In this document: piece by piece, positions 1,132 to 53,150 of the stretch
Numbering within the stretch: position 1 is the first letter of the stretch
Layout: each line of letters starts with the position of its first letter
Assembly (NCBI GenBank): GCA_964606285.1
Contig: CAZSFP010000001.1
Span: forward strand, 69,376-133,375
DNA length: 64,000 nt
Direction of reading: 5' to 3'
DNA from: an uncultured Candidatus Saccharibacteria bacterium
GTDB taxonomy: Bacteria; Patescibacteriota; Minisyncoccia; Phycocordibacterales; UBA9973
Made by a program: the position numbers and the translations under genes
Notes under the pieces: model-generated
What the model was told of the DNA's origin: nothing
What the model saw: the letters and a program-made list of their open reading frames with translations, nothing else
Databases searched by the model: none

Positions 1132-1563
1132 ATGGCCTCAAAGAAACCAACAACTCAAGAAGAAGGATCTGAACCAAAAGCACCAAAGGTGGCTGCTGTT
1201 CGTGTACCAAAGAAAAAGATCGCCGAAGGAACACTTCACATCGAAGCGACATTCAACAACACAAAGGTTACGTTGACTGACAAGTCAGGTAATACTATCT
1301 TTTGGACTTCAACAGGATCTCTCGGATTCAAGGGTGCAAAAAAGGGAACACCGTTTGCTGCATCAAAGGCTGGTGATGTTCTCGGTGAAAAAGCTGCAGC
1401 ACTTGGTATCAAAGAAGTTGATGTCATTGTTCGCGGGGTTGGTTCTGGTCGAGAACCAACAATCCGTGCATTTATGGCACGTGGTATCGATATCACGAGT
1501 ATCAAGGATCAGACGCCAGTTCCGCACAACGGACCAAAGCCTAAAAAGCCACGACGCGTATAA
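1132..1563 (+). CDS. rpsK: 30S ribosomal protein S11
   Basis: 143 aa with the S11 motifs (HIEATFNNTKVTLTD..GN..FWTS.G..GFKG..K.TPFAA). Confidence 0.9.
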   Translation: MASKKPTTQEEGSEPKAPKVAAVRVPKKKIAEGTLHIEATFNNTKVTLTDKSGNTIFWTSTGSLGFKGAKKGTPFAASKAGDVLGEKAAALGIKEVDVIVRGVGSGREPTIRAFMARGIDITSIKDQTPVPHNGPKPKKPRRV

Positions 1564-1603
1564 TTAATTTATTTATCATTCGTTTCTCCCACTTACATTT
1601 ATT

Positions 1604-2209
1604 ATGAAATTCGGACCAAAATACAAAATATGTCGACGATTGGGTGCTGGTGTGTACGAACAATGCCAGACACAAAAGTTTGTCCTCTCTGAAGGCCGCC
1701 ACAAGAAAATTGGTATGAAAAAACCAAAGGCGCTTTCTGGATATGGCGCACAGTTGATCGAAAAACAAAAGATCCGCTTTAGTTATGGTGTGTCTGAAAA
1801 GCAATTTTCAAACTACGTCAAACGCGCAACGGCGACAAAGGGTGGTTCTCCAGCAGAACGACTCTTTGGTTTCCTTGAAACTCGTCTCGACAACGTGGTA
1901 TACCGTCTCGGCCTCGCACATACTCGCGCTCTTGCTCGACAGATGGTTGCGCATGGACACTTTGTCGTCAATGGTACTCGAACAACTGTCCCATCCTATA
2001 CCGTTCGTGCAGGTGATACGATTACTGTCCGAGAAGGAAGTAAGAAATCAGCACTCTTTGCAAATCTTGCCGCAAAGATGAAGACATACACCGTTCCCGC
2101 ATGGCTCTCTCTTAACGCAGAAACACTGACAGCGACCGTCCAAAGTTATCCCAAGAATACCGAATCATTCCTGGATTTCAACGCCGTTCTTGAGTTTTAT
2201 AGTCGTTAA
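1604..2209 (+). CDS. rpsD: 30S ribosomal protein S4
   Basis: 201 aa; S4 N-terminus (GPKYKICRRLG) and S4 RNA-binding region (LDNVVYRLGLA.TR..ARQ.V.HGH..VNG). Confidence 0.9.
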   Translation: MKFGPKYKICRRLGAGVYEQCQTQKFVLSEGRHKKIGMKKPKALSGYGAQLIEKQKIRFSYGVSEKQFSNYVKRATATKGGSPAERLFGFLETRLDNVVYRLGLAHTRALARQMVAHGHFVVNGTRTTVPSYTVRAGDTITVREGSKKSALFANLAAKMKTYTVPAWLSLNAETLTATVQSYPKNTESFLDFNAVLEFYSR

Positions 2210-2223
2210 TATTCATAAGGCCA

Positions 2224-3228
2224 TTGGCCACAATATATTTTATGTCATCACACATCACTACAATTCTTTTGCCATCAAAGCCACGCATTGTGTCAGAAGC
2301 AGACGGGAAAGGTGTCTATGAAATCGACGGTTTGTACCCTGGATACGGTCATACACTCGGCAACTCTCTCCGCCGCATTATCCTCTCATCTCTTCCGGGA
2401 GCTGCGTTGACTTCACTTAAAATCGCGGGTGTTTCTCATGAATTTTCAACAATTCCTGGTGTCAAAGAAGACGTCATCATGATTCTTCTCAACTTGAAGA
2501 AAGTTCATTTCAAATTGATCGGTGATGAACCACAGACAGTTACATTGTCTGTCAAAGGAGCAAAGGCTGTTACAGCAAAAGATATTACTGTAAATGGACA
2601 AGTTGAAGTAACAAGTCCTGATGCATATATCTGTGAATTGACTGACAAGTCTGCAACGCTTGATATCGAAATGACAATCGAGAAAGGTCTCGGTTTCGTT
2701 CCAAAAGAAGTTCATCAAAAAGAAAAAACAGATGTTGGTAGTATCGCGATTGATGCACTTTTCTCTCCAATTCGTCGTGTTAGTTATGAAGTTGAAAACA
2801 TGCGCGTAGGTGACAAAACAAACCACAACCGTCTCCGTATCGCGATTGAAACTGATGGTTCTATTTCTCCACGAGAAGCACTTGAATCTTCAATCTCACT
2901 CATGATCGTCCAGCTCCAAGCAATTCTTGATATCAAACCAGAAGAAAAAACAGCCGCTGTTGCAGAAGAGCAAGTTGAATCATCTGATGAATCAGGAGAA
3001 TCAGTAGGATCATCTGACAATGACATGACTGATGTCATGAAAACACGCGTTGATACACTCGAACTCTCGACACGAACATTGAATGCCTTGAATGCCGGAA
3101 ATATCCGAACATTGGGCGGTCTTGCTCGAAAAAAGAAGGAAGATCTTCTCGAAATCGAAGGAATCGGCGAGAAAGGAATTCAAGAGATCAAAGTTGTCCT
3201 CGCACAATTTGGACTCACATTAAAATAA
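2224..3228 (+). CDS. rpoA: DNA-directed RNA polymerase subunit alpha
   Basis: 334 aa; N-terminal domain GYGHTLGNSLRRIILSS.PG and C-terminal domain (LELSTRTLNALNAGNIRTLGGL). The true start may be the downstream Met near 2242. Confidence 0.9.
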   Translation: MATIYFMSSHITTILLPSKPRIVSEADGKGVYEIDGLYPGYGHTLGNSLRRIILSSLPGAALTSLKIAGVSHEFSTIPGVKEDVIMILLNLKKVHFKLIGDEPQTVTLSVKGAKAVTAKDITVNGQVEVTSPDAYICELTDKSATLDIEMTIEKGLGFVPKEVHQKEKTDVGSIAIDALFSPIRRVSYEVENMRVGDKTNHNRLRIAIETDGSISPREALESSISLMIVQLQAILDIKPEEKTAAVAEEQVESSDESGESVGSSDNDMTDVMKTRVDTLELSTRTLNALNAGNIRTLGGLARKKKEDLLEIEGIGEKGIQEIKVVLAQFGLTLK

Positions 3229-3269
3229 TTGACTTTACGGAGCACTTCTTGTAAGCTTACACACATTGT

Positions 3270-3623
3270 ATGAGACATCATAATTCAGTACGAAAATTTG
3301 GACGACCAGCAGATGAGCGACGCGCGCTCCTCCGGTCTTTGGCATTGTCTCTCATTACACATGAGCGAATCACAACAACCGAAGCAAAAGCAAAGGAACT
3401 CCGTCCGTTTGTTGAAAAATTGGTTACTCTCGGTAAGACTGCATCAGTCACATCACACCGATTGCTCGCATCTCGTCTCATGAACCAAAAAGAAGAAGTC
3501 AAAAAGGTCGTGACTGATATCGCACCACGATACACGACTCGCGCAGGCGGCTATACACGCGTTGTAAAGCTCCCACGACGCCTTTCGGACGGCGCTGCGA
3601 TGGCCATTATCGAATTTGTATAA
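3270..3623 (+). CDS. rplQ: 50S ribosomal protein L17
   Basis: 117 aa; MRHHNSVRKFGR....R.ALLRSLA.SLI.HERI.TT..KAKELR. Confidence 0.9.
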   Translation: MRHHNSVRKFGRPADERRALLRSLALSLITHERITTTEAKAKELRPFVEKLVTLGKTASVTSHRLLASRLMNQKEEVKKVVTDIAPRYTTRAGGYTRVVKLPRRLSDGAAMAIIEFV

Positions 3624-3627
3624 TTAT

Positions 3628-3972
3628 ATGAACTACACTATAGACGCAACAGAAAAGAAAATCGGACGAATCGCTTCAGAGGCGGCGATGATTTTGACTG
3701 GCAAAAACAGTCCGACATTTGAGAAAAACAAAGTCTCAGGAAACAAGGTAACGATCATCAACGCATCAAAAGTTTCTATCGATCCGCGAAAACTTCTTTC
3801 TGTCGAATTTGAACGATATTCAGGATACCCAGGCGGTTTCAAGTCTGAAACTCTTGGAAAGACGATCGAGAAAAAAGGCTACGGAGAAGTGTTCGTTCAT
3901 GCGGTCTACAACATGATTCCTGCAAACAAACTCCGATCTATTATCATGAAAAATCTCACCGTAACTGAATAA
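3628..3972 (+). CDS. rplM: 50S ribosomal protein L13
   Basis: L13-like (ASK.LGR.AS..A..L.GK..P.F.....G..V.IINA.K). Start chosen at the ATG that does not overlap rplQ; the track ORF begins at 3616. Confidence 0.8.
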   Translation: MNYTIDATEKKIGRIASEAAMILTGKNSPTFEKNKVSGNKVTIINASKVSIDPRKLLSVEFERYSGYPGGFKSETLGKTIEKKGYGEVFVHAVYNMIPANKLRSIIMKNLTVTE

Positions 3973-4466: not shown

Positions 4467-5048
4467 ATGCAAGACGAAGAAGATAAAAAAATAGATATTG
4501 GTGAAGAATTGTCTGACGACGTTTCTTTTATTGAAGAAGATGGCGAAGGTGCCGAACTTTCATCTGCTGCCAAAATAAAGAAACTCCGTGAAGAATTGAA
4601 GACCGCGAACAAAGAACGTCTCGAGTATCTGACTGGTTGGCAGCGTGCCCAGGCTGATTATGTAAATCTCAAAAAAGAATCTGGCGAGAGTCTCATTCGT
4701 GGCAAAGAGATTGGCAGGGAACAACTCCTCGATTCATTACTCCCCGCACTCGATAGTTTCGATATGGCGATCGGCAACAAGGAATCATGGGAGAAAGTTG
4801 ATGCGAACTGGCGCAATGGCATCGAATACATCTATTCTCGACTTCTTACTGCACTTACAGAGAACAATGTCACCGTGATCGACAGTGTCGGTGCTCCATT
4901 TGATCCAAATCTCCATGAAGCGATCGAAAATATTCCAACTGACGACACTGGACGTGATCATACAATCGAATCAATCATCCAGAAAGGATACAAGATGGGT
5001 GATCGGATTCTCCGCCCTGCACGAGTGAAAGTATATACTCTAAAATAA
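4467..5048 (+). CDS. grpE: nucleotide exchange factor GrpE
   Basis: 193 aa; acidic N-terminus, coiled coil, then GrpE core (RAQADYVNLKKE....G.E.LL...LP.LDSF..A......V.G..FDPN.HEA). Confidence 0.85.
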   Translation: MQDEEDKKIDIGEELSDDVSFIEEDGEGAELSSAAKIKKLREELKTANKERLEYLTGWQRAQADYVNLKKESGESLIRGKEIGREQLLDSLLPALDSFDMAIGNKESWEKVDANWRNGIEYIYSRLLTALTENNVTVIDSVGAPFDPNLHEAIENIPTDDTGRDHTIESIIQKGYKMGDRILRPARVKVYTLK

Positions 5049-5052
5049 TAAC

Positions 5053-5086
5053 AAAATCCCTTCAATTGAAGGGATTTTGTTATTTT
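5053..5086 (+). terminator. rho-independent terminator after grpE
   Basis: AAAATCCCTTCAATTGAAGGGATTTT hairpin followed by a T-run. Confidence 0.8.
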
Positions 5087-5113
5087 GACAAACTATCTAT
5101 AAAAGTGTATTGT
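5085..5113 (+). promoter_or_regulatory. sigma70-like promoter, copy 1 of a duplicated promoter
   Basis: TTGACA-17 nt-TATTGT. A 41-nt block, TTGACAAACTATCTATAAAAGTGTATTGTGTGCGGGAAATA, is identical at 5910-5950. Confidence 0.6.
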
Positions 5114-5145
5114 GTGCGGGAAATACATCTTTAAAACTCTGGGCT

Positions 5146-5859
5146 ATGAAAATTAAAATATTTCTTATTGATATGTTAACTGGATTGTTTTTACTTATTC
5201 AGTTATATCCTCCATTATTTTCTTTTGTTCCTTCAGAAAAAATTCCCATGATAAGCACAGGTCTCATCATGATTACCGGATTTGTTATTCTCTTTTTGCA
5301 GGTGCCATATGGTCAATTTTTAGAAGAATGGCATGAAAAAAAGATAGATACGCAGCAGTACGCTCTTCGTATCTGTAGTTTATTCATACTGAGAAAAGAG
5401 AAATATTTTCTGATTGATATTGCACCTGCATATTTTGAAGAATCTGAGATTTATAGTCTGACCCACATGCTCTATAGAATGAAAGGATTCTCGCATCGTT
5501 TGACAGTGAGGATGCAGATGGTAAATATCCGAAGATTTCAAAACAACAAACAAAAATTCACTGTTTTAGCAAATGATATAAGTTTGCAATTTCCAACCAA
5601 TATTATCGCTGATTTAAAGAGTTTTTGTATTATGTATGGTCTTCATGGGGATTCTTTGACTCATCTTGTGACGGAATACACAAAGCTTTTGCAGGAAAAA
5701 CTTGGCCAAGAAAAAGCCGAAGTGTTTCTTGTTGAATTGGTGCGATTGTTGGGAGAGGATCAGACGTTTAAAAAAGATGAAGATAAGGTTCGTACAGAAA
5801 TTATAAAACGCCTTAATATTCATATTGATTTGATCAAAAAATCTATGGTTACTGCATAA
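5146..5859 (+). CDS. hypothetical membrane protein, paralog A of a tandem pair
   Basis: Starts MKIKIFLID. Two N-terminal TM helices plus a roughly 170-aa soluble domain. Shares blocks such as KEKYFLIDIA and LNIHIDLIK with the next gene. The track ORF begins at an in-frame TTG at 5110 inside the promoter (MCAGN read-through). Confidence 0.65.
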   Translation: MKIKIFLIDMLTGLFLLIQLYPPLFSFVPSEKIPMISTGLIMITGFVILFLQVPYGQFLEEWHEKKIDTQQYALRICSLFILRKEKYFLIDIAPAYFEESEIYSLTHMLYRMKGFSHRLTVRMQMVNIRRFQNNKQKFTVLANDISLQFPTNIIADLKSFCIMYGLHGDSLTHLVTEYTKLLQEKLGQEKAEVFLVELVRLLGEDQTFKKDEDKVRTEIIKRLNIHIDLIKKSMVTA

Positions 5860-16981: not shown

Positions 16982-17554
16982 ATGATTACTATATCTAAAT
17001 ATACAATACCCAATTTTGAAGATATAAGGCATAACTATAATTTTAAAGATCGTATTGATCTTAAATATGCAAGTTATATTGCGTGTTTATATTATGAATT
17101 TGCTTATTATCGAATGTTGGGATTTAGTGATATTCGTAGTAGATTTTTTAAAGAAAATTTACCTGATAATAATCTAATAAATAATTATTTAAATCAATCT
17201 TGGTCCGAAGCTTATTCAGTTTATGCATTATTGCGAACCTCTATTGAAGCAGTAAGAAAAATAAATAAAGGATTACTAAACGAAAATCTTATTAATTCTT
17301 ATTATAAAACTAAGATAAAAAATATTATTAACATTACTAACGACATTATTAAGCATCCAATGTTTAATGATGCTAGTGGTCAATCTCAGGCATATCGTCC
17401 AATAAGTTTGGATATAGGGGGAAATATAGATATAGAAAGATGGATAGATAAAACTACACCTTCTTCGACTTTAAGTATTTCTCCAATGGAAGATTTCGAA
17501 GCAGTAAAAAATTATTTAGAACACATAGCAGAATTATTAAAATCAATAAAATAA
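16982..17554 (+). CDS. hypothetical protein in the lexA operon with anomalously AT-rich composition
   Basis: 190 aa, starts 4 nt after lexA. GC is visibly lower than the flanking genes. No recognisable domain. Confidence 0.5.
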   Translation: MITISKYTIPNFEDIRHNYNFKDRIDLKYASYIACLYYEFAYYRMLGFSDIRSRFFKENLPDNNLINNYLNQSWSEAYSVYALLRTSIEAVRKINKGLLNENLINSYYKTKIKNIINITNDIIKHPMFNDASGQSQAYRPISLDIGGNIDIERWIDKTTPSSTLSISPMEDFEAVKNYLEHIAELLKSIK

Positions 17555-30622: not shown

Positions 30623-30970
30623 TTAATCTTTATTTCTTATGATTTTTGTTTTAAACCATTGCTCTTGAAAATGTATCATTTCTATTATTTCTTCATCTGT
30701 ATAATTTTCTCCTTCTTTTACCACTATCAATTTATCGTCATCATCATTTTCCCGATGAACATATGCGATACAAATACCCGAGATTTCTTTCAAGGATGTT
30801 TTTTCACTCAAATAATATGCATCCAGTTCTTCGCCGTCTGGAGAAACGGTATCAGGAACATATCCATAGTTCAATTCATACACAAAACCATGTTTCGGAT
30901 GTTTTGTTCCAAATGGTCGATCAAAAACTAAGCTAACTTTTTCACCAAGAAAATCTGATGCTTTTGTCAT
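30623..30970 (-). CDS. truncated family-I inorganic-pyrophosphatase-like protein (115 aa)
   Basis: Alignable to the E. coli PPase core: FDRPF~FVDRF (R43), NYGYV~NYGYI (Y55), SPDGEELDAYYL~SLDGDPVDVLV (D65, D70), ENDDDDKLIVV~DEAGEDAKLVAV (D97, D102, K104), HFQEQWFK~HFFEHYK. Lacks the N-terminal 30-40 residues. The start is 2 nt after the upstream gene stop and cannot extend, because of an in-frame stop 7 codons upstream. Confidence 0.5.
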   Translation of the reverse strand: MTKASDFLGEKVSLVFDRPFGTKHPKHGFVYELNYGYVPDTVSPDGEELDAYYLSEKTSLKEISGICIAYVHRENDDDDKLIVVKEGENYTDEEIIEMIHFQEQWFKTKIIRNKD

Positions 30971-30972
30971 GA

Positions 30973-31413
30973 TTAGTTCATCTTTATTTTAAATTCATTA
31001 TTTTCTATTTTAGGATCTTTCCAATCAGTGAGTCTATAATAATCAAATAGTTTTCCAGCTTCTATAGTTTCGGTATGTTGTACTGGTAAAGTATCTATAC
31101 CAACAATAGCGTATTGGCGATCATCTATAATTTTTATATTTTCTGTCGGAATAGATTCGGAATCAAAAGAGTATATGTAGACATTTTCTTTTGGATCAAA
31201 ATGATTTGATTCTTTGAAACTGACTGTGTGTTTTTTGTCATCAAGAAAAGTCTCGCCGTTAGGTCGAGCACCCATGGCGACAGCGAAACTATAATCTGGG
31301 GTTAGATAAATACCGTTTAGTAATTCATCTCTCGGTACTTCAGTGTCGCCTTGTTGGGCCTGTCGATTCTCCAGCTTATTAAGTAGTATTTTTGATCCGT
31401 GATATAACTTCAT
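30973..31413 (-). CDS. minimal ADP-ribosyltransferase-like protein (PARP/Tpt1 fold) - tentative
   Basis: 146 aa starting MKLYHGS (HGS/HGT motif of ARTD/Tpt1 enzymes). It is followed by GIYLTPDYSFAVAMGARPNG (compare PARP GIYFAD..S.SANY and KptA VHLS.D...A...GARHG) and ENVYIYSFD (compare PARP NEYIVYD and KptA ENGVWLTS). Assigned from motifs only. Confidence 0.35.
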   Translation of the reverse strand: MKLYHGSKILLNKLENRQAQQGDTEVPRDELLNGIYLTPDYSFAVAMGARPNGETFLDDKKHTVSFKESNHFDPKENVYIYSFDSESIPTENIKIIDDRQYAIVGIDTLPVQHTETIEAGKLFDYYRLTDWKDPKIENNEFKIKMN

Positions 31414-31443
31414 ATTTTTAGATAGTATTACGTTTGTATATTG

Positions 31444-31515
31444 TGCGCGTGGAAGGAATCGAACCTTCGACCTCTGTCTTATCAGGACAGCGTTCTACCA
31501 CTGAACTACACGCGC
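31444..31515 (-). tRNA. tRNA-Ile (anticodon GAU)
   Basis: Cloverleaf is readable on the minus strand. Acceptor stem GCGCGTG/CACGCGC, D-loop AGTGGTAGA, anticodon stem-loop CTGTC-CTGATAA-GACAG, T-arm GAAGGTTCGATTCCTTC, discriminator A; CCA is not encoded. Confidence 0.85.
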
Positions 31516-31572
31516 ATATGGTTTTCAACCCGAAAACTATATCAAAAAAAACGAGTATTTGCAATCTTTTTG

Positions 31573-31606
31573 TAAAACAAAAACTCTCCACATTGCTGTG
31601 GAGAGT
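31573..31606. terminator. terminator downstream of the RRM protein gene (minus strand), hairpin usable on both strands
   Basis: ACTCTCCACA-TTGC-TGTGGAGAGT flanked by an A-run and a T-run. Confidence 0.7.
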
Positions 31607-31624
31607 TTTTGAAATCACGAGTGA

Positions 31625-31948
31625 TTAGTAGTCGCGTCGAGGACGGTTGAAACCGCCACCATTGCCACCACCGAATCCGCCTTGACGTGGAGGTCGTTCT
31701 GTCATAGGACGAGCGATGTTCACAGTCAATTTGCGGCCTTGGAAATCCTGATCGTGGAACATTGAGATCGCTTTTTCAGCATCTGCATCAGATGCCAATT
31801 CTACGAATCCAAATCCCTTTGATCGGCCAGTTGGCTTGTCGATAATAATTGCAGCTGAAGTAACTTCACCTGCTTGCTCAAAGTGCGCCTTGAGCTCTGC
31901 GTCTGTTGTGCTGTATGGAATACCGCCAACATAAAGTTTTGTTGCCAT
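31625..31948 (-). CDS. RRM-domain RNA-binding protein with a Gly-rich tail
   Basis: RNP2 LYVGGIPY and RNP1 KGFGFVEL; C-terminus RQGGFGGGNGGGFNRPRRDY. Confidence 0.85.
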   Translation of the reverse strand: MATKLYVGGIPYSTTDAELKAHFEQAGEVTSAAIIIDKPTGRSKGFGFVELASDADAEKAISMFHDQDFQGRKLTVNIARPMTERPPRQGGFGGGNGGGFNRPRRDY

Positions 31949-34549: not shown

Positions 34550-35041
34550 TTACTTTGCGAGAGTGAGGATGTGATCGAAATGTTTTTTGGAGACTGGTTG
34601 AATCGAGAGACGGGATCCGACAGTGCGAACGAGCATGCCGTTGAGCTTCGGATCGATCTTGATCTCACTCAGGGTCACCGGATGTTTGAATGTTTTGACA
34701 TATGCCATATCGACACAGTGCCAAATTGCCCGCCCGGATGACCCGTTCGGACGGGTTTTTTCTTTTGTTGCTTTCGGATCATAATGATCGTCTTTTTTGT
34801 CGAATTGTGTTTCATCAACATGTGCCTTGCTTGCAACTTTGACGACACCGTAGACACCTGTTGGATTCTCGGTCGTGCCACCGGAGTGATAAAAGAGAAC
34901 CATATCCCCTACTTTCATATCTCGCGTCATAAAATTCCGCGCCTGATAATTGCGGACACCGGTCCATGCGACTTTTTTATCTTTCTTCATGTCATCAATC
35001 GAATAACAATCCCATTCTGATTTTATAAGCCAGTAGTTCAT
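34550..35041 (-). CDS. EVE (PUA-like) domain protein
   Basis: MNYWLIKSEWDCYSIDD...WTGVRNYQARNFMTRDMKVGDMVLFYHSG....GVYGVVKV......D....D..YDPKAT......W.CVDMAY......PVTLSEIK..P.L..M.L...GSRLSIQPV.KKHFDHI is the canonical EVE signature. The track ORF extends to 35122, but the Met-28 start matches family N-termini. Confidence 0.75.
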   Translation of the reverse strand: MNYWLIKSEWDCYSIDDMKKDKKVAWTGVRNYQARNFMTRDMKVGDMVLFYHSGGTTENPTGVYGVVKVASKAHVDETQFDKKDDHYDPKATKEKTRPNGSSGRAIWHCVDMAYVKTFKHPVTLSEIKIDPKLNGMLVRTVGSRLSIQPVSKKHFDHILTLAK

Positions 35042-35120
35042 ATGGAGTAATTTTATCATATATTTCATCTTATTGACAAAATTATAAATAAAATGTAAAT
35101 TATTAAAAAAATAGAAAACC

Positions 35121-35549
35121 ATGAAGATTGAGTATAGAAGATTTGTTGCGTGTAAAGATTTTCAAAGTGAAAAAACTCAAAAAGGATTACAGAAAAAAGT
35201 TGCACAACTCCTAAGTTCATTATTGATAGGAGCTATTGTTGATAAACGGATAATTGATTTTTTACATGATACCCACATCAATGAATCAAATTCAGATAAA
35301 CAAAAAACACCTCTAGAGGTTTTTGTAGGATCTGGATTTGATACTTGTTCCATATCACCAAGTATTCTGATGGTGTATGATGTTCATTATAAAAAACATG
35401 GTTTTACGGACAAGAAAGAATTTTTTAGAGCCCTTCAATCCCTCAATGAGGTATGGGAAAAATTTTGCACTGTACGAAAATATTCTGATGATGTTTCTTA
35501 TAGTCAACATCTGGAAATTATTATTGAATTTTTTTATGTTACAAAATAA
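35121..35549 (+). CDS. hypothetical protein
   Basis: 142 aa; terminator hairpin AAATCACGTA-ATTTGAT-ACGTGATTT plus a T-run at 35548-35583. Confidence 0.45.
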   Translation: MKIEYRRFVACKDFQSEKTQKGLQKKVAQLLSSLLIGAIVDKRIIDFLHDTHINESNSDKQKTPLEVFVGSGFDTCSISPSILMVYDVHYKKHGFTDKKEFFRALQSLNEVWEKFCTVRKYSDDVSYSQHLEIIIEFFYVTK

Positions 35550-50083: not shown

Positions 50084-50506
50084 CTAATCTTTCAAAAGAA
50101 GTTTAGCGTTTAATTCTTTCCCTGCCTTTAAAAATTCAATAGTAATATTTTTTGAGGAGGTTTTTAATTCTTCAAGTAATTTCTTTATACTTTCTTGTTT
50201 TTCTGGTACATATTTTTTCATACTAAAATGACGTATTTCTTCTGAAACGATATTTTCTACCCCTTGAAGTGAAGTCCATTTTTTCCCATTCCAAACTTTT
50301 ATTGTAATTTCGCCTGATATTGGAGTCAGAGTAGCATCGTGATAATAAACATCTTGAAGAACACTAATATTTATATCACCCATTTTAAAGTATCGTGGAT
50401 AATATTTTTTAGTTTCATATCCAAAGAAAATTCTAGATGATTTAAAATCAATTACTTCTTGATTTACAACTTCTTGTTTTATGTTTGGTTGTTTGGGGGT
50501 TTCCAT
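50084..50506 (-). CDS. hypothetical protein co-oriented downstream of gap
   Basis: 140 aa, AT-rich, 10 nt after the previous gene. Confidence 0.45.
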   Translation of the reverse strand: METPKQPNIKQEVVNQEVIDFKSSRIFFGYETKKYYPRYFKMGDINISVLQDVYYHDATLTPISGEITIKVWNGKKWTSLQGVENIVSEEIRHFSMKKYVPEKQESIKKLLEELKTSSKNITIEFLKAGKELNAKLLLKD

Positions 50507-50515
50507 ATTAAAATA

Positions 50516-50890
50516 TTATATCTCTGATAAAACCACGTTATATTTATTACCAACAGCATTTTGAATAATTTCTTGTGTTTCTTGCCATGAAATTTTAAGT
50601 GGTCCTAAATTAAGTGATTTTGAAGATCGGTCAATTATTATTTCATTTCCAAACAAATTCAAAACTGCACCACCCAGAGATTCAATTTTTTCTCCGCATT
50701 CATTTTCGAGATCAGCAAACATTTCTGGATGTTTTTTTTCGGGCATAGTAACAAAATGGAATTCATTTTTAGATTTGGCTATAACAAATTTTTGAGCACC
50801 GCCAAATTCTAAAATATCTTCTCCAAATGTAACAAGTGATTTACCAACTTGTATTTCAATATTCTTTTTCTCTTGCGATACTGTTTCCAT
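50516..50890 (-). CDS. hypothetical protein immediately downstream of gap
   Basis: 124 aa; starts 2 nt after the gap stop. Confidence 0.45.
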   Translation of the reverse strand: METVSQEKKNIEIQVGKSLVTFGEDILEFGGAQKFVIAKSKNEFHFVTMPEKKHPEMFADLENECGEKIESLGGAVLNLFGNEIIIDRSSKSLNLGPLKISWQETQEIIQNAVGNKYNVVLSEI

Positions 50891-52799: not shown

Positions 52800-53150
52800 T
52801 TAAAATTCACTTTGTATTTTTGATATAACACCATTCATATTTGTATTTATCTCAGTATTTGTAAATCGTAAAACTTTTATACCAAGTGAATTAAAATATT
52901 GCGTTCGTACAATATCATATTCTTGATCTTCTTCTGTATAATGCTGCGATCCATCTATTTCAATCACTAATTTTTTCTGAGTACAATAAAAATCTGCAAT
53001 GTATGTACCAATACTATGCTGTCTTCGAAATTTAAAACCGAGTTTTGAATTTTTTAATTGGTTCCATAATAAAATCTCTTGAGGGGTTGCATTATTTCTT
53101 AATGTTTTTCGATAAGAATGTAGTTGTGAAATATTATTAACTGTTTTCAT
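52800..53150 (-). CDS. DUF559 endonuclease-domain protein (Vsr-like restriction-endonuclease fold)
   Basis: 116 aa; LR...T..E..LW..L.....G.KFRRQ...G.YI.DF.C...KLVIEIDG..H.......D..R......LG..VLRF.N.E. is the DUF559 signature. Confidence 0.75.
   Translation of the reverse strand: MKTVNNISQLHSYRKTLRNNATPQEILLWNQLKNSKLGFKFRRQHSIGTYIADFYCTQKKLVIEIDGSQHYTEEDQEYDIVRTQYFNSLGIKVLRFTNTEINTNMNGVISKIQSEF

Follow-up and report, generated by a model that had tools for sequence, protein, structure and literature searches.

The closest described relatives, by sequence, of the small protein considered here are ART-PolyVal (PF18760) and DUF3990 (PF13151), two families of the Pfam ADP-ribosyl clan. ART-PolyVal is a domain of the polyvalent proteins of giant phages or plasmids, and to our knowledge no activity has been demonstrated for it, for DUF3990 or for the family that we describe. 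Among characterised ADP-ribosyltransferases (ARTs), the Arr enzymes (arr-2, arr-3) are standalone proteins of 140-150 aa with H-G-[ST] and Tyr motifs, Tpt1/KptA has an N-terminal RNA-binding lobe and the catalytic tetrad Arg-His-Arg-Arg, and DarT/DarG, ParT/ParS and MbcT/MbcA are paired systems. Here we consider a 64-kb stretch of DNA from an uncultured Candidatus Saccharibacteria bacterium (contig CAZSFP010000001.1, positions 69,376 to 133,375; hereafter the window), in which a tRNA-Ile gene is followed by two small open reading frames (ORFs): ORF1, encoding an ART-fold protein, and ORF2, encoding a protein that resembles family-I inorganic pyrophosphatase (PPase). An earlier note on this DNA had proposed that the two genes form a toxin/antitoxin or reversible ADP-ribosylation module. 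We favour, though with reserve, a different reading, namely that the two small genes after tRNA-Ile are accessory genes whose functions are independent of each other and that this is not a new toxin/antidote system. The layout itself is as that note described, with two same-strand genes 2 nt apart directly 3' of tRNA-Ile(GAU), in the following order:

31443-31515, minus strand: tRNA-Ile, anticodon GAU (GAT), called by ARAGORN and matched by Rfam RF00005 (77.7 bits, E 1.4e-16)
30973-31413, minus strand: ORF1, 146 aa, starting MKLYHGS, ART fold; ORF call with conserved homologues
30623-30970, minus strand: ORF2, 115 aa, compact and family-I-PPase-like; Pfam PF00719, homologues, AlphaFold2 (AF2) model, Foldseek and hhalign

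ORF1 begins 29 nt after the tRNA, and ORF2 begins 2 nt after the ORF1 stop codon. Since both have conserved homologues, both are real genes. Loci of the ORF1 family (labelled L001 and so on) were gathered from genomes, metagenomes and exact-protein look-ups, and redundant flanks were merged, leaving 19 distinct downstream contexts plus one more (about 20) and 23 distinct upstream contexts. Downstream of the ART-like gene, a PPase-like gene stands in two of the ~20 contexts, the window and L005, and upstream it stands in none of the 23; it is missing from the remaining 18 of 20 downstream contexts, including those of the closest relatives of ORF1 (58-65% identity). The proposed two-gene module is therefore not borne out: the pair largely fails to co-occur in other genomes, and in L005, the one further place where they adjoin, each forms an integron-type cassette of its own. 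No neighbourhood is conserved around ORF1 homologues, which stand beside mutually unrelated genes such as YceI with cytochrome b5, dCMP deaminase with NUDIX, DUF5655, an NTP transferase, 2-thiouracil desulfurase, MscL, peptidyl-tRNA hydrolase (Pth), RecR, STAS, the C-terminal part of GyrA, SecDF and HD_4. The difference in family size also speaks against a dedicated pair, as the same search tool returned 2343 clusters of ORF2 homologues and 21 of ORF1 homologues, roughly a 100-fold difference. A gap of 4 nt separates close relatives of ORF2 from the gene before them, which may be thymidylate-kinase-like, AAA_18 kinase-like (itself inside a MazG-HIT-NUDIX island) or Pth, so that a spacing of 2-4 nt between unrelated genes is nothing unusual here; the tight packing of ORF1 and ORF2 would then be what is usual in this compact genome.

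Two further observations concern these neighbourhoods. A short PPase 79% identical to ORF2 lies within an island of nucleotide house-cleaning genes (L034/L035 2224-8345), whose order is MazG-like, HIT, NUDIX, AAA_18, PPase, His_Phos_1, AAA_18 and four NUDIX genes. Pth stands directly before an ART-like gene in L024 (1914-3009) and before a short PPase elsewhere (L036/L037 3406-4354), which may be a coincidence or the remnant of an older Pth-ART-PPase order.

Homologues of ORF1 also move on their own. L004 and L005 carry an identical ORF1 homologue, and the DNA that they have in common amounts to only 690 bp (99.9% identity) containing that one gene. In L004 it belongs to an array of same-strand small ORFs split by repeats with the anatomy of attC sites. 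We counted as a cassette an ORF followed by an attC site (R''-L''...L'-R') whose R'' is complementary to the cassette's own 5' core. In eight consecutive units of L004, R'' is the reverse complement of the GTTNNNN 5' core, at 7 of 7 positions in five units and at 6 of 7 in three; the L boxes pair at 9-11 of 11 positions, and the bottom strand of the attC-like sites folds with an unpaired spacer. The window, used as a control, contains no perfect attC site and no chain of sites, and there is no attC at its own copy of ORF1, where the gaps measure 29, 2 and 21 nt. The segment shared by L004 and L005, both of which show the integron cassette feature, runs from position 3933, exactly the G of the 5' core, to 12 nt past the 3' core; because it is bounded by cassette cores, we conclude that the ORF1 homologue is a single-gene mobile cassette of 677 bp. 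The cassette that comes next is DUF5655 in L004 and a separate PPase (4611-5147) in L005. As the same cassette has different followers, the ART-like gene moves alone without an antidote, and no gene that travels by itself can rely on an antidote next door, which speaks against ORF1 being a toxin and against the analogy with DarT/DarG. Toxin-antitoxin pairs in integrons, by contrast, share one cassette. Integron-type gene-cassette arrays were found at four places:

L004 1-8441 (equal to L044 4195-12635; contig CAZDJX010000002.1)
L005 3933-5172
L012, about position 2307
L017, about position 4594

L044 holds at least 17 same-strand small ORFs with attC-like sites of 86-197 nt. No integrase was found in the first 18.6 kb of the 303-kb contig CAZDJX010000002.1, and a scan of L004 with Rfam, which has no attC model, gave only noise. 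One cassette array lies on a contig that bears the label Candidatus Moraniibacteriota, an assignment by label only. We found no paper on integron cassettes in Patescibacteria, and literature searches on DUF3990, short PPases in Patescibacteria, integrons of the candidate phyla radiation (CPR) and ART cassettes returned nothing specific.

Some features of these loci stand apart from the cassettes themselves. Upstream of the ART and PPase cassettes of L005, at 1140-3637, lie parts of a diversity-generating retroelement (bAvd and an RVT_1 fragment) and a RhuM-family gene, and in L017, too, a RhuM-like gene stands before the ART cassette. An identical 148-aa ART-like protein (P0002, 58% identical to ORF1) occurs on several short contigs (L038, L039/L041 and L040) with differing called neighbours, a ParB/N6_N4 methyltransferase in one and a resolvase in another. 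No attC site was found in these P0002 loci, and since flank clustering merges some of them the number of distinct contexts is uncertain; their distribution suggests mobility beyond attC arrays.

ORF1 has the split beta-sheet ART fold, with the motifs H5-G6-S7, I35-Y36-L37-T38 and V78-Y-I-Y81..D84. Its opening MKLYHGS had been read as the H-G-S NAD-binding motif of an ART, and this is upheld by the family, in which H5 is conserved at 95%, G6 at 92% and S7 at 90% (78 members, as for all such values here). The Tyr-containing segment GIYLTPDYSFA also proved sound: Y36 is conserved at 94% within I-Y-L-T-P and aligns with the Tyr of Arr and the second His of Tpt1. Further conserved positions are A44 (97%), F72 (91%), Y81 (>80%) and D84 (82%), the last at a strand end. 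An exhaustive profile search of 1.84 billion proteins yielded 90 representatives, nearly all of them standalone proteins of ~125-150 aa labelled 'hypothetical protein', from metagenome-assembled genomes of Saccharibacteria, Moraniibacteriota, Lloydbacteria and other Patescibacteria. Further out, the family has relatives in Woesearchaeota and Pacearchaeota, and among the remote profile matches one carries PF18760. The close family is acidic (median pI 4.9; ORF1, 5.1).

Unlike the ART-PolyVal domain, members of this family are standalone proteins of ~146 aa in CPR/DPANN-type genomes, and all their scores against ART-PolyVal and DUF3990 lie under the gathering cut-off. ORF1 itself reaches 15.5 bits against DUF3990 (cut-off 32.2; E 0.014). 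Among 19 close homologues, 12 match DUF3990 and five match ART-PolyVal, all weakly (best member E-values 0.0016 and 0.004-0.012, respectively), and these matches cover the N-terminal half from H-G-S to Tyr. DUF3990 has been counted in the ADP-ribosyl clan (PMC7955679). No Pfam ART model exceeded its cut-off in any of the family members scanned, and a Pfam scan of the longer members for domain fusions found no informative domains. ORF1 had no match in NCBIfam, PHROGs or PADLOC, the latter two being without a match for ORF2 also. Searches of the PDB by sequence, with ORF1 and with its family profile, gave chance matches only, and a viral fold search of BFVD gave only weak, unnamed matches. ORF1 thus represents a new family within the ART superfamily, one that is unnamed and has no Pfam model.

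In organisation, ORF1 is most readily compared with Arr. Besides size, standalone architecture and motifs, the two have in common an acidic pI (5.2 for Arr-3), and arr-3 and ORF1 homologues are both carried as single-gene integron cassettes without an antidote. ORF1 was not placed within Arr, as hhalign aligned it to Arr-3 with a probability of 2.5% and over the generic N-terminal ART half only. The statement that ORF1 is far smaller than any characterised ART has to be withdrawn, since Arr (140 aa), AcrF11 (137 aa) and TreX (128 aa) equal it in size. What remains on this side of the locus is a small unnamed ART-fold family of Patescibacteria-/DPANN-type genomes, whose genes, like the arr genes for rifampicin resistance, can travel in integron-type cassettes of one gene each; the family is a reasonable candidate for biochemical testing.

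ORF2 is like family-I PPase (E. coli Ppa) in fold, passes the PF00719 cut-off (35.3 bits against 23.5, over profile positions 31-104 of 153) and keeps the core Tyr, Asp and Lys residues. Its AF2 model has a pLDDT of 93.6, and the top 50 Foldseek matches in the PDB are all PPases (E ~1e-6, TM 0.6-0.7). The alignment by hhalign to E. coli PPase (E 4.9e-6; reference sequence 100% identical to 4um4_A) gives these correspondences, ORF2 residue first: Y31=Y51, Y35=Y55, D45=D65, E47=D67, D50=D70, D78=D102 and K80=K104; R18 probably corresponds to R43. Pfam, Foldseek and hhalign thus agree with the earlier assignment to a family-I PPase core with core Asp and Lys residues kept, the place of D67 being taken by Glu. 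The active site of E. coli PPase comprises E20, K29, E31, R43, Y51, Y55, D65, D67, D70, D97, D102, K104, Y141 and K142. This complete set is not present in ORF2: its alignment begins near residue 35, so the strands bearing E20, K29 and E31 are absent and these residues have no counterpart, and D97, Y141 and K142 are ambiguous. ORF2 scores 23.9 bits against the NCBIfam PPase equivalogs, which mark orthologues of the housekeeping Ppa and whose cut-offs are 200 and 246.

The truncation of ORF2 had been suggested before, and that the N-terminal part is gone stands: at 115 aa compared with ~175 aa for E. coli Ppa, it lacks the first two strands, its reading frame has stops 8 and 10 codons before the ATG, and its length is genuine because nearly all homologues among the matches listed have 110-135 aa. 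Simple truncation is not the whole description. The short PPases share invariant residues of their own (H24, K26, H27, R73, Q102 and E103), and an HPKH insertion is likewise specific to them. ORF2 is thus a remodelled mini-PPase rather than a simple truncation, and it is probably still a phosphoanhydride hydrolase. Members, of about 110-125 aa, are annotated 'inorganic diphosphatase' in Paceibacterota and Clostridia, and we found no paper characterising a short PPase of this family, which is large, already annotated and uncharacterised. It is thus a very large family of ~115-aa PPase-like proteins that bears an enzyme label even though three canonical active-site residues are absent, its activity being a prediction. 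The ORF1 and ORF2 families are useful as annotation caveats more than as surprises.

If the two genes are independent, as we favour, the following functions may be proposed. ORF1 would bind NAD+ in a pocket of the PARP/diphtheria-toxin type, lined by His5-Gly-Ser on strand 1, Tyr36 on strand 2 and Phe43 or Tyr41 on the following helix, and would transfer ADP-ribose to a target. This target is presumably non-lethal to the cell itself, because the gene elsewhere travels as a single-gene integron-type cassette without an antidote; a small molecule, as with Arr and rifampicin, or a foreign macromolecule would be candidates. ORF2 would most likely hydrolyse pyrophosphate (PPi) or a closely related phosphoanhydride with Mg2+, as a general housekeeping or nucleotide house-cleaning enzyme.

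Several points weigh against this proposal. The NAD+ binding, transferase activity and target of ORF1, and the PPase activity of ORF2, are putative. ORF2 is the one PPase-like match in the window, a count that bears on other PPases within those 64 kb only. The same ART-to-PPase order twice in ~20 contexts exceeds the ~0.02 that we estimate for uniform placement among ~1000 genes; the chance expectation would be considerably higher once it is considered that both genes are evidently in the same accessory or cassette pool. A loose association between them may exist all the same, through that shared pool or as a functional link in a subset of genomes. Finally, the third ART motif is not conserved and the window copy has Asn there, so that ORF1 could be inactive.

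Loose association can be put in metabolic terms, with both genes drawn from a pool of NAD or nucleotide 'house-cleaning' genes and linked by a shared compartment or mild synergy rather than as a dedicated system; a PPase could, for example, pull nucleotide reactions forward. ORF1 homologues do occur near dCMP deaminase with NUDIX, near HD_4 and near NUDIX, a short PPase occurs in a MazG-HIT-NUDIX-AAA_18-His_Phos-NUDIX island, and both genes occur as cassettes in one array, adjacent twice in the same order. However, most neighbours of ORF1 homologues have no nucleotide connection (SecDF, MscL, YceI, STAS, RecR, GyrA). What ADP-ribosyl transfer releases is nicotinamide and not PPi, which leaves the coupling of an ART with a PPase without a chemical rationale, and we regard a metabolic association of this kind as unlikely.

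We give about the same low credence to ORF1 being a catalytically inactive ART fold, that is, a pseudo-enzyme or a module binding NAD or ADP-ribose. In its favour, no Pfam ART model is passed and the third position of the triad is variable. The Glu-containing segment that had been pointed out, ENVYIYSFD, does not supply a conserved residue, since only 27% of the family have E76. Position 77, where the catalytic Glu would be expected just before the V-Y-I-Y strand, is E in 32%, D in 26%, N in 12% and others in 30%, with N77 in the window. Set against this is the retention of H-G-S and Tyr at 90-95%, which suggests selection on the NAD pocket. Moreover, Tpt1 and Arr are active ARTs without Glu. 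Active PARPs with H-Y-I, H-Y-L and H-Y-Y triads have likewise been tabulated (PMC7955679).

More ambitiously, the ORF1 family could be an unnamed clade of standalone NAD+-dependent modifiers of CPR bacteria and DPANN archaea, spread by integron-type cassettes and serving as Arr-like small-molecule resistance or as anti-defence or host-manipulation enzymes, with the ART-to-PPase order reflecting real synergy in a subset. We think this combination of claims quite unlikely to hold as a whole.

A role on tRNA or RNA ends, with ORF1 as a minimal Tpt1/KptA-like RNA-directed enzyme, would explain its position right after tRNA genes. An ART-like gene lies 23-43 nt downstream of a same-strand tRNA in three independent contexts, with three different tRNAs:

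tRNA-Ile-GAU, window 31443-31515
tRNA-Ser-GCU, L001/L002 3870-3957
tRNA-Gly-UCC, L022 243-314

Three of ~23 contexts is by our rough estimate a marginal enrichment, and such adjacency could reflect insertion hot spots rather than function. Tpt1 membership fails because ORF1 has no RNA-binding lobe and no conserved Arg set that fits the tetrad; within its 146 aa only 75 residues, the NAD lobe, align. With a KptA-like sequence, hhalign recovered just the generic N-terminal ART half, at a probability of 5%, and neither ORF1 nor any scanned homologue has a PTS_2-RNA match in Pfam. The second motif residue is Tyr in ORF1 and His in Tpt1/KptA, and the family is acidic, not basic, which is unusual for enzymes of nucleic acids. 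We therefore hold a Tpt1-like role to be very unlikely.

A dedicated pair in which ORF1 acts as toxin or modifier by ADP-ribosylation and ORF2 as the antidote or the enzyme of reversal, in the manner of DarT/DarG with a PPase fold replacing the macrodomain, is highly improbable: the 2-nt gap on a common strand, the same gene order in L005, the ART fold of ORF1 and a GC content of both genes under that of their flanks would suit it, but the neighbourhood and cassette evidence above denies ORF1 the conserved partner of DarT/DarG, ParT/ParS and MbcT/MbcA, PADLOC gave no match, no macrodomain was found in the window neighbourhood (ORF2 having a PPase fold and not that of a macrodomain, ARH or NADAR), PPi is the substrate for which the active site of family-I PPases is made, and we know of no PPase-fold enzyme that removes ADP-ribose. 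Had the pair proved a conserved module, a new type of reversible ADP-ribosylation system would have come to light; according to the evidence it is not one.

The surroundings of the locus bear on its transcription. These features lie upstream of it:

31536-31564, minus strand: sigma-70-like promoter match 21 nt before the tRNA (TTGCAA-17-TATAGT with TG; consensus scan)
31580-31611, minus strand: intrinsic-terminator-like hairpin with U-run (RNA fold -25.5 kcal/mol, z -6.8 against shuffles)
31625-31948, minus strand: gene for a glycine-rich RRM RNA-binding protein (RRM_1 match)
34550-35122, minus strand: gene for an EVE-domain protein near the locus (E 1.5e-47)

The hairpin closes the upstream RRM gene and sets it apart from the tRNA unit. 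The promoter-like site is a possible start of a tRNA-ORF1-ORF2 transcript; being one of 12 scan matches where 8.5 are expected by chance, it is a lead only. With the hairpin upstream, this site before the tRNA and no terminator between the tRNA and ORF1, a single transcript spanning all three genes is plausible, and the suggestion that the pair might share a transcript with the tRNA can be retained.

Horizontal acquisition of ORF1 and ORF2 at the tRNA, which the position at a tRNA 3' end had been taken to fit, is possible and weakly supported. The GC content of the two genes, below that of the immediate flanks, is mildly low without making them outliers (z -1.0 and -1.4), and this much agrees with it. 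On the other side, no repeat of the tRNA 3' end was found, so that there is no classical boundary of a tRNA-targeted island, and Pfam scans of the ten flanking genes found no integrase. Elsewhere in the window, small ORFs at 16982-17554, 52800-53150 and 50084-50890 have a GC content of 0.25-0.31 (z down to -2.6), far below that of ORF1 and ORF2, and may be other accessory insertions.

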